Assembly (NCBI GenBank): GCA_030754595.1
Contig: JASLZZ010000056.1
Coordinates: 19,805-83,804 of the forward strand
Length of the DNA: 64,000 nt
Source: Nitrospinota bacterium
GTDB taxonomy: Bacteria; UBA8248
Reading direction: 5' to 3'
The notes under the pieces are model-generated. The model did no database searches. It had not been told where the DNA came from and saw nothing but the letters and a program-made list of their open reading frames with translations. Position numbers and translations under genes: made by a program. This document shows positions 58,233 through 63,105 of the stretch, in pieces; the first letter of the stretch is position 1; every line of letters starts with the position of its first letter.

Positions 58233-58277
58233 TTTGGATTCTCCCCTGGAAGATGGAAAGGAAAACGGCATCGCAAC

Positions 58278-58308
58278 AAAAAACCTCCGGCCTCCGGGAG
58301 GCCGGAGG
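58278..58308 (-). terminator. Rho-independent terminator closing the UGA-containing unit
   Basis: On the minus strand CCTCCGGCCTC-CCG-GAGGCCGGAGG followed by T6. Confidence 0.85.
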
Positions 58309-58324
58309 GGTATGTCTCAACCGC

Positions 58325-58498
58325 TCAAACCCTGACCAGTTTCCTCCGGACCCACCTGAAACCCTTCTGAACCAGAAGGAAGAGGAGTCCGCTCAGTCAG
58401 GTCGGACAATACTCCGGCTCGCTCCGGGGAGCGTTGGCCCGCTCCTCGGCCTGCTCCTCCCTCGCGGTTTCAGCTTTCTCTGCCGCCTGGGATTTCAC
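58325..58498 (-). CDS. Putative 57-aa selenopeptide (C-P-T-U), not in ORF track
   Basis: GGAGAG RBS and GTG; MKSQAAEKAETAREEQAEERANAPRSEPEYCPT-UGA(58397-58399)-LSGLLFLLVQKGFRWVRRKLVRV*; fills the gap between DUF971 and the terminator. Confidence 0.6.
58363..58379 (-). promoter_or_regulatory. Candidate bacterial SECIS hairpin
   Basis: CCUUCUG-GUU-CAGAAGG starting 17 nt after the UGA; G-U at the start of the loop. Confidence 0.55.
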
Positions 58499-58510
58499 GC
58501 GCGTCTCTCC

Positions 58511-58858
58511 CTAAACCTCTTCCCCGGCCTCGTACCGGTTTCCGGGATCGATGGACCTGAGGTAATCGAACGAGTAGATGCCGTCCGCGCAGCCCGCCTG
58601 CCAGGTGATGCTCAGGGCGTAGCGGCCCACCATCGAAGCGTCCCCAAGTTCGGCGGGCCCCAGCTCGCCCGATACGACGCGGAGCGAATTGTTCTCCATC
58701 TCGGCCCGCTTCTCACGGCAGTTGGCGCAGGGGCACATGGCCGCCAGATAATCGAAACCGTAAACGCTCTTGCCGCCCCCCGCCCACTCGATCCGAAGCT
58801 CGCGGGCGGTCTTGTCCATCGTTAAATCGACGGGGCGGCGCCCCTCGGCGGTCGTCAT
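58511..58858 (-). CDS. DUF971 (gamma-butyrobetaine hydroxylase N-terminal-like) protein
   Basis: LRIEW, CPCANC, VGRYAL.ITW, GIYSFDYL. Confidence 0.85.
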   Translation of the reverse strand: MTTAEGRRPVDLTMDKTARELRIEWAGGGKSVYGFDYLAAMCPCANCREKRAEMENNSLRVVSGELGPAELGDASMVGRYALSITWQAGCADGIYSFDYLRSIDPGNRYEAGEEV

Positions 58859-58891
58859 TATTCCCCACTCTACTAAGGACGGAAAAAAGAT

Positions 58892-59545
58892 TTATTTCCC
58901 GCCGTATTGTTTATATTTCACCGATGCGGCGGTGCCCCGCTTCGCGGACTCGGGCGTTTTCAGCTCGAGCACATAGGGGCGATCGACCGAGGCGGCGCGG
59001 ACGGCATCGAGGAGTCCCTCGTCGTCCTGCCCCTCCCAATCTCCTTCCTCGAGCTTCACGAAAACCGGATTGCCGCTCTCGAAGAGCAGGGTCGGCACCC
59101 CGAAAACGCCGTATTCGCCCTCGGCCTCTTCGTGATCCGCGGCGAGGAGCGGAATGCCCGCGCCGTTTTTCATGTCCTCCTCCCAGCGCTCCACGTCGAG
59201 CCCCACCTCGATAGCAACGTCCCGGAGGACGAGCTGGTTGGTGATGTCCTTTCCATCCCGATGCTTCGCCCGGTGGAGGACGACATGATATTTGGCGAAC
59301 TGGCCTTCGCCCTGGAGGGCGGCGCATTTCGAGGCCTCGAGCGAGGGGATGTCGCGGCTGGCCATGCGCTTATCTTCCCATGCCTTCCAGTCCTCACCGC
59401 GCGCGCTGGCGAAATTCACCTGCTCAAGTACAAACGACTTGTAGTCCACGCTGAGATCCTTGTTCTTTTCCTGAAGACGAGTGAGCCACTCCGTGGCCCG
59501 GTATGCGTAGGGTCAGACGTAGCAATTCCACATCGTGATATTCAT
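58892..59545 (-). CDS. Putative selenoprotein, DsbA/FrnE-like thioredoxin fold (217 aa, UGA at codon 11)
   Basis: AGGGG RBS, ATG 59545: MNITMWNCYV-UGA(59513-59515)-PYAYRATEWL... in frame with ORF 58892-59449; cis-Pro motif GVFGVPT. Confidence 0.8.
59483..59499 (-). promoter_or_regulatory. Candidate bacterial SECIS hairpin
   Basis: GGGCCAC-GGA-GUGGCUC starting 13 nt after the UGA; G at the start of the loop. Confidence 0.6.
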
Positions 59546-59668: not shown

Positions 59669-59758
59669 TAAATTTTATACTTGACAGACTGTATCTTATT
59701 TGCAATATATATGAACGTACCAGTCAGGTTAAAATCATTATTTTGCAGGGGCAATGAC

Positions 59759-59971
59759 ATGAGCAAACTACAGGCAGTCGAATGCACGGAATGCGGTGAA
59801 TTCTCCCCCACGGACCATATAGGCCCCTTCGGCCCGGTTTGCGACAGGTGCCGTGACTGGGAGTTCCTGGCGGGAGGTCAATTACTCTCGATTCCTTCCC
59901 AACACATTGAAATAAAAAAGGAAATTCAATCCGCCACGCATCAAAAGCGTATTCTCGTTGCCCAGTCTTGA
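59759..59971 (+). CDS. Small CxxC...CxxC (Zn/Fe finger) protein
   Basis: MSKLQAVECTEC...VCDRC; AGGGG RBS; overlaps the hemD-like start. Confidence 0.55.
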   Translation: MSKLQAVECTECGEFSPTDHIGPFGPVCDRCRDWEFLAGGQLLSIPSQHIEIKKEIQSATHQKRILVAQS

Positions 59972-60791
59972 CGGCCGCATCATCGTCATCACTGGCCAGC
60001 GGCGCGCCGGCGAGATGTCGGAGCTGGTTCGCCGCTTGGGAGGAGAGCCCTATATCGCCTCAACGGTGAGCCTTCGCTTCGAGGATTCAGCCCAAGAGGC
60101 CGAGCGTCTGGCCAAGGAAGTTATCGAGGGAGTGGACTGGGCGGTTTTCTATACCGGGGTGGGTGTCCGGGCCCTATTCGATGCCGCCGAAAGTGGCGGC
60201 TGTGCCGGGGCCTATCTTGAGAGCCTCAAGGCCGCCAAGGTCCTCTCTCGGGGAAGAAAAGCCCTCCGGGCGCTCAGGGAGGGCGGCCGGCCGCCCGACT
60301 TCCAGGCCGAGCCGGGAACCACCGAGGGCGTCATCTCGTCTCTAACCGAAGCCGGGGTAATAACCGAAGCCGGGGGGAACGGCGCCTCGGTATTCATCCA
60401 AACGCCCGGAGCGATGCCAAGCGCCCTTCCCCGGGCCCTCGCTCCCTACGAAGTGCGGCTGATTCACGGCTCCCCCTACCGGATCCTCCCGTCCGAGGAC
60501 CCCGGGGCCGTCTCCCGACTTATCGGCCGCCTCCTCGATGGCGGAATCGACGCCATCACGTTCACCAGCCCCCCGGCGGTGAATAATCTTTTCGTCGCGG
60601 CGGACGAGATGGGCCAGGCCGAGGAGCTGGCCGCCGCCCTGAACGAAAGTGTCGCCACTGCCTCGATCGGTCCGGTGACGAGCGATGCGATCCGCGAGAA
60701 CGGGGTCGAGCCCGCCCTCGAGACCGAAAGCCAGCGGATGGGCGGTTTGCTCCAGGATCTCGCGCAGGTGTTCGCGGTCGAAAAAAGTTGA
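59958..60791 (+). CDS. hemD: Uroporphyrinogen-III synthase-like
   Basis: ITGQRRA.E, FYTGVG, SRG.K, DAITFTSPPAV, SIGPVT. Confidence 0.8.
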   Translation: MPSLDGRIIVITGQRRAGEMSELVRRLGGEPYIASTVSLRFEDSAQEAERLAKEVIEGVDWAVFYTGVGVRALFDAAESGGCAGAYLESLKAAKVLSRGRKALRALREGGRPPDFQAEPGTTEGVISSLTEAGVITEAGGNGASVFIQTPGAMPSALPRALAPYEVRLIHGSPYRILPSEDPGAVSRLIGRLLDGGIDAITFTSPPAVNNLFVAADEMGQAEELAAALNESVATASIGPVTSDAIRENGVEPALETESQRMGGLLQDLAQVFAVEKS

Positions 60792-60856
60792 CTCTGAAAA
60801 TGAGAAGAATTTTATTCCGGTTTCTTTAGAAAGCCGATAACCACCAGGAGAAAGAA

Positions 60857-62659
60857 ATGAGCCCGAAATCCACGCCATACGCCGATGAGACCAAGGCCCG
60901 GTCGGTGATTCCGATACTGCCCGAGGAGTTCGACGACTTCGAGACCGAGGCGGCGAGGTTCCGCGGCGGCGCCCTCGACGAAAAAGAGTTCATGGGCTAC
61001 CGCCTCAAGCGCGGGGTCTACGGCCAACGGCAATCGGACGCCCAGATGGTCCGGGTGAAACTTCCCTTCGGCGGGGTCACGGCGGACCAGCTCGAGGCCC
61101 TGGGGCAAGTCGCCCGGGACTTCGCGCCGCTGAACAAGGGCCACGTCACCACCCGAGAAAATGTTCAGTACCATTTCATTCCCCTCGAGCAGGCATCGGA
61201 GATTCTAAGAACCCTGGGGGCGGCCGGCCTTTCCTCTCGGGAGGCCTGTGGCAACTGCGTGCGCAACGTGACCGGCTCGCCCTACGCCGGCGTCGACAAG
61301 GACGAGGTCTTCGACCCCACTCCCTACGCCGGAGCCTACGTGCGCTACTTCGTCCGCAAGCCCTTGGTCCAGGATCTCCCCCGGAAATGGAAGGTGGCCT
61401 TCTCGAGCACCGCCGCGGACGACGTTATCGCCGGAATCCACGACCTCGGCTTCATCCCCGTTATCCGAGAGGTGGCGGGTGAGCGGGTCAAGGGTTTCCG
61501 CCTTCTTGTGGGAGGAGGCCTGGCCACCCTGCCCCGGCCGGCCATGGTGCTTTACGATTTTGTCCCGGTCGCCGATTTTCTGCGGGTCAGCGAGGCGATC
61601 CTCCGGGTCTTCAACGACTCCAAGGATCTCCGCAAGACCCGGTTCAAGGCGCGCATCAAATTCCTCGTCTCCTGGATCGGCATCGACGGGCTCAAGGAAC
61701 GCGTCGAGAACGAACTCAAGGAAGAATGGGCGAGCTCGCCCATCGATCCCACCCCCTATCTCTGGGTGGACGATGAAGAGGCGGACCTCCCAGCGGCGGC
61801 GCTACCGATGAACGGCAACGCCGCGAGCCCGAACGGCGACTCGTGGGCTTTTTCGGTGTGGAGGAGCAAGAACGTCAGGGAGCAGCGCCAGCCCGGCTAC
61901 CATGCCGTAGAGGTAGGCCTGCACCTCGGCGACATCCAGGCGGACCAGTTCTTCCGCCTCGCCGATATCAGCCGGCGCTACTCGCGCGGCCGCGCCCGGA
62001 CGAGCTTTGAGCAAAATATCGTCTTTCGCTGGGTCCGGGACGAGGATCTTTACGCCCTCTGGCGCGACCTCGGCCGGGCCGGGCTCGGCGAGGCGGGGGC
62101 GCACGAGATCACCGACATCGTCTCCTGCCCGGGGACCGACTCGTGCAAGCTCGGAATCACCGCCTCCATGGGCCTGGGCGAGGAACTCATCCAGACCCTC
62201 AAGGAGATGAACATCGACGACCCGCTCATCCGCGAGATGCACATCAAGATAAGCGGTTGCCCGAATTCGTGCGGCCAGCACCATCTCGCCAACATCGGCT
62301 TCCACGGCGGAACGCTCCGGGCGGAGGGGAAAATGCTTCCGGCCTACGAAATTTTCCTCGGCGGACAATACGAGAACACCGGGGGAAACACGCGCCTCGG
62401 CGACCGGATTTACATCCGTCTGCCTGCGAAGCGCGTTCCCGAGGGGCTCCAGAAAATTCTCGCCCTCTACCTGAGAGAGCGGCTGGCCGGAGAGCGCTTC
62501 AACGAGTTTTATGCGCGCGCCGGAAAGGGGCCTTTCGAGGAAACCCTCCAAGATCTCCATGTCGGCGGCCAGTTCGGGGACGACCCCGACCTGTTCGTCG
62601 ACTGGAACCGCTCGGAGCCCTATGTGCTCGAACGAGGGGAAGGCGAGTGCATGTCCTGA
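60857..62659 (+). CDS. Siroheme nitrite/sulfite reductase hemoprotein
   Basis: GVYGQRQ, HVTTREN, LPRKWK, SCPGTDSC and SGCPNSCGQH cluster/siroheme cysteines. Confidence 0.92.
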   Translation: MSPKSTPYADETKARSVIPILPEEFDDFETEAARFRGGALDEKEFMGYRLKRGVYGQRQSDAQMVRVKLPFGGVTADQLEALGQVARDFAPLNKGHVTTRENVQYHFIPLEQASEILRTLGAAGLSSREACGNCVRNVTGSPYAGVDKDEVFDPTPYAGAYVRYFVRKPLVQDLPRKWKVAFSSTAADDVIAGIHDLGFIPVIREVAGERVKGFRLLVGGGLATLPRPAMVLYDFVPVADFLRVSEAILRVFNDSKDLRKTRFKARIKFLVSWIGIDGLKERVENELKEEWASSPIDPTPYLWVDDEEADLPAAALPMNGNAASPNGDSWAFSVWRSKNVREQRQPGYHAVEVGLHLGDIQADQFFRLADISRRYSRGRARTSFEQNIVFRWVRDEDLYALWRDLGRAGLGEAGAHEITDIVSCPGTDSCKLGITASMGLGEELIQTLKEMNIDDPLIREMHIKISGCPNSCGQHHLANIGFHGGTLRAEGKMLPAYEIFLGGQYENTGGNTRLGDRIYIRLPAKRVPEGLQKILALYLRERLAGERFNEFYARAGKGPFEETLQDLHVGGQFGDDPDLFVDWNRSEPYVLERGEGECMS

Positions 62660-63105
62660 GCGACGGCCCGGAGGGTTCGGGGCATACGGCCGGCCTCCTC
62701 CTCGGCCACGGAAGCCGCGCGGAGGCGGCCAACGGGGCCATGTACGAGATCGTCCACCGTCTCCAGATCAAATGGCCCGCCTATCGGTTCAGCGCGGCCT
62801 TCCTCGAGATCAACGTCCCATCGATCCCCGAGGGGATCGATTTTCACGCCGAGGCCGGCGCGGATCGAATCATTCTCCTGCCCTACTTCCTGCACCTGGG
62901 CAATCATGTTCGGAAGGACCTGCCCCGCTTCATGGAAGAGGGCCGCCGCCGACATCCCACTGTCGAGATTCAACTCGGCGGGCACCTGGGCTTTCACCCC
63001 AAACTGGTCGAGATCGTCGAGGAGCGCCTTCTGGAGTCCCTCGAACCGGTTCCCTCCGCTTTTTCTTTCCAGGAAAAGGCGCATAGAATAGCCGCATCGC
63101 CCTAG
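62647..63105 (+). CDS. CbiX/SirB-family sirohydrochlorin chelatase
   Basis: LGHGSR, AFLE, LPYFLHLGNHVRKDLP, HLGFHP; exact start uncertain. Confidence 0.85.
   Translation: MHVLSDGPEGSGHTAGLLLGHGSRAEAANGAMYEIVHRLQIKWPAYRFSAAFLEINVPSIPEGIDFHAEAGADRIILLPYFLHLGNHVRKDLPRFMEEGRRRHPTVEIQLGGHLGFHPKLVEIVEERLLESLEPVPSAFSFQEKAHRIAASP

Follow-up and report, generated by a model that had tools for sequence, protein, structure and literature searches.

A three-gene Nitrospinaceae operon with a DUF971 gene between a DsbA-like selenoprotein and a probable second, small selenoprotein

The Nitrospinaceae are the dominant marine nitrite oxidisers. Here we describe a trio of genes from a Nitrospinota bacterium, located on the minus strand of a 64,000-nucleotide (nt) stretch of contig JASLZZ010000056.1 (assembly GCA_030754595.1; this whole stretch is called the window, and positions are counted from its first letter), which encodes a DsbA-like protein (gene 1), a DUF971 protein (gene 2) and a small protein with a Cys-Pro-Thr-UGA motif (gene 3). 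An earlier note, made from the letters of the window, had proposed that the trio is an operon with two selenoproteins, in which the first and the last gene each read an in-frame UGA as selenocysteine (Sec, U). Our analysis supports, with a probability of roughly 60%, a real Nitrospinaceae operon in which two UGA-decoded selenoproteins are placed around a metal-binding DUF971 protein, with a redox relay as the proposed function. The parts of this reading are not equally strong. That the three genes form one operon and that gene 1 incorporates Sec can be regarded as practically certain, the first half of the proposal being borne out by a conserved TGA, a Sec/Cys pair and the presence of the Sec machinery, whereas gene 3 is a probable selenoprotein only, because it has no Cys homologue and the evidence from its tail is moderate.

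The trio occupies positions 59545-58325 and is tightly spaced, with gaps of 33 nt between genes 1 and 2 and of 12 nt between genes 2 and 3. Gene 1 (58892..59545, minus strand) has 217 codons when the TGA at codon 11 (59513..59515) is read through, gene 2 (58511..58858, minus strand) encodes the 115-residue DUF971 protein, and gene 3 (58325..58498, minus strand) has 57 codons, with a GTG start, the Shine-Dalgarno (SD) sequence GGGAGAG and a TGA, the candidate Sec codon, at codon 34 (58397..58399). An intrinsic terminator closes the trio (58275..58308, minus strand; stem and T-run at 58308-58284), which begins 16 nt past the final stop of gene 3 and has an 11-base-pair (bp) stem, including 9 G-C pairs, and a 3-nt loop. 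The tight spacing of the three genes, the strong terminator and the UGA three codons after a Cys in the first and last genes (CYV-TGA and CPT-TGA) agree with the reading of the earlier note. It had also remarked that the open reading frame (ORF) track shortens the first gene and misses the last, and the same holds for our listing under genetic code table 11, where gene 1 appears only as a 185-residue fragment with a GTG start and gene 3 only as a 33-residue ORF. In the AT-rich divergent intergenic region 5' of gene 1, a consensus scan for promoters, which yielded 3 sites against 0.7 expected, shows a weak promoter-like site (TTAACC-17-TATATT, 59704..59732, minus strand), and an RNA-library contig that extends to 59623, toward this site, lends it weak support. 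No RNA-library contig spans any of the gene junctions by at least 31 nt on both sides.

Judged by its gene content, the source organism can decode UGA as Sec. The window itself holds no sel gene and a tRNA-Leu as its sole tRNA, in keeping with the earlier note, which had found no selA, selB, selC or selD there and had suggested looking in the rest of the genome; selA, selB, selD and tRNA-Sec are all present outside the window. In the source genome (138 contigs, 96.9% complete) selA scores 552 bits, selB 364 bits and selD 345 bits, all above the curated cut-offs, and the tRNA-Sec, with 73.6 bits, exceeds its cut-off of 47, with ARAGORN assigning it as SeC with anticodon tca. The selD gene, at contig C16:24543-25505 (locus L019), contains one in-frame TGA, therefore selenophosphate synthetase is itself a selenoprotein in this genome. 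Across the phylum, selB is above cut-off in 48 of 51 genomes, and since the remaining three genomes are incomplete (67-91%), they provide no usable natural comparison for Sec loss.

Gene 1 starts with M-N-I-T-M-W-N-C-Y-V-U-P-Y-A-Y, where the Cys is C8 and the Sec is U11, matches the Pfam family DSBA (PF01323, E 1.9e-17) and has no signal peptide; by sequence it is a cytoplasmic thioredoxin-fold oxidoreductase of the DsbA/FrnE/Rv2466c type. Of 41 genomes examined by a read-through search, 32 contain a full-length orthologue, 49-100% identical and with a single in-frame TGA, the matches running from residue 1-2 to residue 212-217 and hence covering both sides of the TGA; one more genome has a fragment only, at a contig edge. 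The motif C-Y-[VI]-U-P-[YF]-A-Y is present in all 26 fetched loci, and a further Cys, C74, is invariant in 19 aligned Nitrospinota sequences. In a wider set of 80 loci, the aligned Sec column holds TGA in 23 (18 from Nitrospinota and relatives of the f4 type described below, 1 from Thermodesulfobacteriota, 3 from Dehalococcoidia/SAR202 and 1 from Actinomycetes) and Cys in 53 (from Dormiibacterota, Chloroflexota, Actinomycetota and others, with the motif D-F-L-C-P-W-A-Y), the site being uncovered in the remaining 4. Gene 1 therefore belongs to a classical Sec/Cys pair, which is the outcome that the earlier note had looked for in an alignment of its UGA with Cys. In terms of the canonical C-P-x-C site, the Sec replaces the first, nucleophilic Cys, and an Ala stands in place of the second. 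Three positions before the Sec, all Nitrospinota loci have a Cys, and all 53 Cys forms, together with 5 Sec forms of other phyla, have an Asp. Two RNA-library contigs from two studies, in which DNA carry-over is possible, cover both the start codon and the TGA, and the latter is unchanged, where the earlier note had allowed that a TGC, TGT or TGG at this codon would undo its proposal. Taken together, these comparisons make gene 1 almost certainly a genuine selenoprotein.

Nowhere is the nucleotide sequence of gene 1 more conserved than at the TGA and in the hairpin stretch behind it. From run X18, two RNA-library contigs align with the window over just 42 nt of this part (59483-59525, 4 differences) and then diverge from it; they look like transcripts or DNA of relatives that share the TGA and hairpin stretch. 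Closer public protein entries for gene 1 have 128-204 residues in comparison with its 217 codons, and four of them that were aligned begin at Met18, past the TGA. In seven loci of class-level relatives (f4, L037-L043) the motif reads C-Y-V-C-Y-V-U, with a second Cys at position -6, and two of them, L037 and L038, have downstream, in place of DUF971 and the peptide, a small hydrophobic ORF (M-D-[ML]-D-F-L-F..., with the length of one membrane span and ending at a TGA). A genome of another phylum (G039; contigs C517 and C515) harbors two distant DsbA-like paralogues, 29-31% identical and with one in-frame TGA each, and more TGA-containing DsbA-like paralogues occur in G032, G031, G029 and G011.

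Behind each TGA lies a hairpin resembling a selenocysteine insertion sequence (SECIS). According to a review (PMC13188914), bacterial SECIS elements (bSECIS) have a loop of 3-9 nt, a stem of 4-16 bp, a G within the first two nucleotides of the loop, a distance of 16-37 nt between UGA and loop and a minimum free energy of -7.5 or lower. Hairpin 1 (GGGCCAC-GGA-GUGGCUC, 59483..59499, minus strand, 7 bp, loop GGA) begins 13 nt past the TGA, has its loop at 20 nt and an energy of -9.2 kcal/mol, and hairpin 2 (CCUUCUG-GUU-CAGAAGG, 58379-58363, or 58362..58380 with an additional U-G pair, minus strand, 7 bp, loop GUU) begins 17 nt past the TGA, with its loop at 24 nt and -7.5 kcal/mol. Both are within these limits and stand where the earlier note had seen 7-bp hairpins with a 3-nt loop starting with G, 13-17 nt past the UGA. 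Over 25 distinct sequences, 97.7% of the cells of hairpin 1 are paired, with CG (14), UG (8) or UA (3) as closing pair; because this hairpin is embedded in a conserved coding stretch (R-A-T/M-E-W-L), it covaries weakly, and 35 of 500 shuffles score as high. For hairpin 2, in the subtype of the window, 8 pairs show 95.8% of cells paired over 9 sequences and two of the pairs change on both sides, yielding a covariation score of 0.326 versus 0.237 in shuffles, of which 3 in 500 score as high, and slid controls are at most 75% paired. An Rfam scan returned nothing near threshold, the weak matches over the terminator (E 1.3-4.1) being to small RNA (sRNA)-like models.

Gene 3, starting at the GTG at 58498, arrives at its TGA after E-Y-C-P-T and continues for 23 open codons until a second TGA (58327-58325). 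Its relatives, with ORFs of 46-71 residues, share the same build, namely a variable, mostly acidic N-terminal part, the C31-P-T-U34 motif and a 23-residue cationic amphipathic tail, whose net charge (+3 to +7) and hydrophobic moment (0.42-0.74) are found in 19 of 19 sequences. In the alignment of these 19 sequences, M1, C31 and the TGA are invariant, and T33, V43 and W49 are conserved in at least 90%. An ORF of this build follows DUF971 in 13 of 18 loci; of the other five, four lack it and one is truncated by the end of its contig. A profile built from the 19 sequences and run on 51 Nitrospinota genomes found gene 3 once per genome in 33 of them, belonging to six genera: g1 (4 of 4 searched), g9 (4 of 4), g8 (21 of 23), and g5, g2 and g10 (1 of 1 each). 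The groups with no match are g4 (0 of 4), g7 (0 of 2), g3 (0 of 1), g6 (0 of 1, contig end), f3 (0 of 1) and f4 (0 of 7). A start codon (ATG, GTG or TTG) and an SD-like motif are present in all 21 gene 3 loci inspected, and in g8 a single codon separates the DUF971 stop from the start of the peptide, so close that coupled translation is suggested. Gene 3 has no Pfam match at E <= 1, and its best NCBIfam match, to a precursor of ribosomally synthesised and post-translationally modified peptides (RiPP), is at chance level (E 0.29).

Two complete g8 genomes, one with locus L046 (genome G015) and the other being G056, have genes 1 and 2 without the peptide, and at L046 a restriction/methylase-like ORF comes after DUF971, which suggests that the peptide was recently replaced there. 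Other identities considered for gene 3 were discarded. A transmembrane anchor does not fit its tail, as the hydrophobic run is too short (maximal 15-residue Kyte-Doolittle mean 0.86-1.59) and the moment is high; neither does a RiPP precursor or a regulatory leader, as the operon lacks a maturase and has this ORF at its end, followed by the terminator. An ORF in frame +2 (58317..58409) was likewise rejected, its ratio of nonsynonymous to synonymous polymorphism (pN/pS) being 1.56-1.64.

Gene 2 matches PF06155 (DUF971/GBBH-like_N) over its whole length, with an E of 3.1e-17 and 63.5 bits against a gathering cut-off of 22.8. The four Cys of C42-P-C44-A-N-C47 and C90 do not vary among 14 sequences. 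The source genome has a single DUF971 gene, as do two other family members that were checked, and this gene directly follows gene 1, with a spacing of 33 nt or similar, in 18 of 26 loci, that is, in all loci of groups f1 and f2, at least nine genera. A preprint (bioRxiv 10.1101/072470) names DUF971 a "FeS cluster maintenance protein" from mutant cofitness with Mrp, BolA and YggX.

From these elements a mechanism can be proposed, most economically a cytoplasmic selenol/thiol relay. U11 of gene 1 would attack an oxidised substrate and C8 or C74 would resolve the product, while the C-P-T-U of gene 3 would be a partner or a substrate of gene 1, positioned by its cationic amphipathic helix, for which a partner or the surface of the membrane would be possible docking sites. 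The beneficiary would be the four-Cys site of DUF971, or the Fe-S/metal sites of its clients. That the two CxxU centres exchange selenenylsulfide/selenol equivalents as a relay is, in our estimation, a little short of an even chance, and that under oxidative or nitrosative stress such a relay keeps the DUF971 site, or the Fe-S/metal sites of clients, loaded and in the reduced state is a tentative proposition. The most inclusive version, according to which gene 3 founds a Sec-only family and acts with gene 1 and the sole DUF971 as a selenium relay for Fe-S/metal centres in marine nitrite oxidisers, we consider rather doubtful.

Both selenoproteins may be real and serve instead as a general thiol-stress or electrophile reductase similar to FrnE/Rv2466c, recycled by a low-molecular-weight thiol or thioredoxin, with gene 3 as its dedicated partner and with DUF971, and the NirA and LeuC-like genes nearby (see below), as incidental synteny. 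The closest solved or characterised relatives of gene 1, i.e. FrnE, Rv2466c and DsbA folds of the HCCA isomerase type, are what this alternative would lead one to expect, and the DsbA-like selenoprotein is found without a DUF971 neighbour in 8 of 26 loci (those of f3 and f4, where DUF971 is unlinked from gene 1 and lies elsewhere in the genome) as well as in relatives outside Nitrospinaceae; no DUF971 gene occurs within 2.5 kb in any of the 66 loci L064-L129 from f4-type relatives and other phyla. DUF971 is moreover a single-copy gene of housekeeping type, and in f4 it has its place elsewhere in the genome. Incidental synteny has against it the adjacency of gene 1 and DUF971 in every f1 and f2 locus and the g8 peptides that start one codon past the DUF971 stop, and we regard this alternative as unlikely.

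The other main question is whether the UGA of gene 3 is read as Sec, which, on the sequence data, we consider quite probable; gene 3 probably represents a new family of small, Sec-only selenoproteins confined to Nitrospinaceae. All 33 strong matches span the site with exactly one in-frame TGA, and none among them, in the 51 genomes searched, shows Cys, TAA or TAG there. The alternative is that gene 1 is the only selenoprotein and that this TGA is an ordinary stop, ending a peptide of 23-37 residues with C-P-T, the conserved sequence behind it, in front of the terminator, being an RNA structure of the 3' untranslated region. TGA is indeed a common stop in the operon (gene 2: 11 of 20), and the stops of gene 2 are TGA 11, TAG 5 and TAA 4, those of gene 1 TAA 15, TGA 4 and TAG 3, and the terminal ones of gene 3 TAG 10, TGA 9 and TAA 3 (22 distinct peptides). 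True stops of the operon thus turn over, while the internal TGA does not vary in any of the 33 strong matches from six genera, and the most conserved residues of the whole ORF sit precisely around it (C31 and T33). The tail, moreover, retains its cationic amphipathic character despite identities of 23-89% among the sequences and has a smaller pN/pS in frame (0.59 and 0.68) than in frame +1 (0.70 and 0.88) or frame +2 (1.56 and 1.64); a hairpin with compensatory changes lies at SECIS distance, and the neighbouring gene 1 uses Sec. An ordinary stop thus appears improbable, and translation of the tail has moderate support from the sequence comparisons.

Several observations weigh against our reading of the operon, and some of them are shared by the ordinary-stop alternative as points in its favour. 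No Cys homologue of gene 3 was found by a word search of 5.8 billion clusters or by a profile search of 1.84 billion representatives, although nearly all known selenoproteins have Cys homologues, as stated in the review cited above (PMC13188914); the pairing of UGA with Cys that the earlier note had hoped for in both genes is hence not seen for gene 3, where the UGA itself is what is conserved. The profile search returned one true relative (P0047, 46 residues), which has a W at the TGA and therefore was evidently called under a code where TGA is W, and three repetitive unrelated proteins. The tail's pN/pS in frame and in frame +1 differ modestly, and the open frame past the TGA, which extends over 21 codons or more in each of 23 cases, does not discriminate, because frame +2 is also open in all 23. 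With a hidden Markov model (HMM) built from the tails of one subtype, the tails of the other rank first among 1403 six-frame pieces, with an E of about 2-7, so that the likeness between subtypes (E about 2) is not significant alone. Hairpin energies are unexceptional, since the z values for the 42-44 nt past each TGA, -0.30 and +0.62 against dinucleotide shuffles, indicate no better folding than in the shuffles; therefore the weight of the hairpins rests on their conservation at a fixed distance, and the hairpin of the g8 subtype of gene 3 is weaker, with 6 bp, an internal mismatch, a CGUG loop and no covariation. RNA-library contigs give no cover over gene 3. The peptide is absent from g4 (0 of 4), from g7 (0 of 2) and from two g8 genomes in which genes 1 and 2 are retained, and is therefore dispensable. 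The redox or metal-cluster role, finally, is a proposal drawn from domain families and gene order, and the unlinked DUF971 genes and the 66 loci mentioned above count on the same side.

That gene 3 represents a conserved small RNA or attenuator instead of a coding sequence, or else a RiPP precursor, is scarcely credible, since the chance-level NCBIfam match and the weak sRNA-like matches over the terminator have to be set against a start codon with SD in 21 of 21 loci, an Rfam scan with no match near threshold, an operon with no maturase-type gene and a pN/pS of 0.53 in the N-terminal part in g8.

Concerning the surroundings, the operon is followed downstream by RidA and an aconitase-family (LeuC-like) gene. 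Upstream, a divergent cluster on the plus strand (59958-63105) encodes HemD, a 600-residue siroheme 4Fe-4S reductase of NirA/Sir type and a protein with a CbiX domain, which by its sequence is a siroheme/assimilatory reductase cluster; the NirA gene is located upstream of gene 1 in loci from g1, g2, g5 and g8. The divergent gap contains in addition a 70-residue ORF (59759-59971, plus strand) with two CxxC pairs, zinc-ribbon-like and with no Pfam match, which shares 14 nt with the beginning of HemD. Loci of the genus (L025-L027, L050 and L051) conserve this ORF at 41-89% identity.

The reason why genes 1 and 3 are only found truncated in databases, or are missing from them, is that their apparent stops most likely encode Sec. 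Public entries are either short (gene 1) or limited to a single one under the wrong code (gene 3), therefore comparative and metaproteomic studies miss both proteins. Gene 3, having no Cys counterpart, also escapes by construction the standard discovery of selenoproteins through Sec/Cys pairs, and a small selenoprotein of this kind would, if true, be an unusual addition to the about 119 known families. The fixed pairing with the sole DUF971 gene provides a concrete handle on the role of DUF971, and if the relay holds, part of the nitrite oxidation in the ocean would be tied to the supply of selenium.

Among known systems, gene 2 is the easiest to place. We take the DUF971/GBBH-like N-terminal domain (PF06155) to be represented by PDB 3luu and 2l6n and by the C-terminal domain of the Fe-S carrier HCF101. 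PDB 3luu (E 4.9e-13) shows that the C-P-C-A-x-C motif is common to gene 2 and the DUF971 family; the fourth ligand position, in contrast, is a Cys (C90) in gene 2 and a His in 3luu. Among the listed literature records that mention DUF971, no report of a pairing with a selenoprotein was found. Gene 3 resembles the small CxxU selenoproteins (SelW-like; NF041239, with a CC/Se motif; NF041197, dual-CXXC) in being short and in its CxxU motif, but differs from them in that it matches no model, is too short for a thioredoxin-like fold and has a cationic amphipathic tail after the Sec. In line with the earlier note, which knew of no described system of such composition, neither the small protein nor the trio is described in NCBIfam, Pfam, the 119-family table of the review (PMC13188914) or the literature searched, the families of Haft and Tolstoy 2025 being covered through NCBIfam and this table.

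For gene 1, the nearest solved structure is PDB 7dk9 ("DSBA domain-containing protein", E 3.1e-28), whose single-Cys D-F-L-C-P-Y-A-W aligns with C-Y-V-U-P-Y-A-Y; the literature search found no publication describing the 7dk9 protein itself, its one hit being a preprint on side-chain modelling. In 7dka the Cys aligned with the Sec of gene 1, which 7dk9 uses, is a Ser. FrnE (E 6.9e-07) and Rv2466c (E 3.6e-06), represented by PDB 5xur and 5cnw and both with CxxC sites, come further off, as does HCCA isomerase. DsbA-like selenoproteins have been known since 2005. The table of the review lists 119 selenoprotein families, including a DsbA-like form 1 (UxxC) and a form 2 (DxxUP) (PMC13188914). As described in the Sargasso Sea study (PMC1088965), form 1 has in common with gene 1 the DsbA fold, a nucleophilic Sec and routine mis-annotation as a truncated protein, but it keeps the second Cys (U-x-x-C), whereas gene 1 has U-P-[YF]-A in 26 of 26 loci and so falls outside form 1. 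Form 2, as far as it is characterised in the table (PF01323, DxxUP; PMC13188914), shares with gene 1 the Pfam family, a Sec followed by Pro and the lack of a second Cys, a likeness that concerns the motif only; it has an Asp at -3, where the Nitrospinota proteins have a Cys, together with their invariant C74. The Sec forms of Dehalococcoidia/SAR202 (D-F-R-U-P) are 30-34% identical to gene 1. Gene 1 is, then, a new CxxUP variant within the already known DsbA-like selenoproteins.

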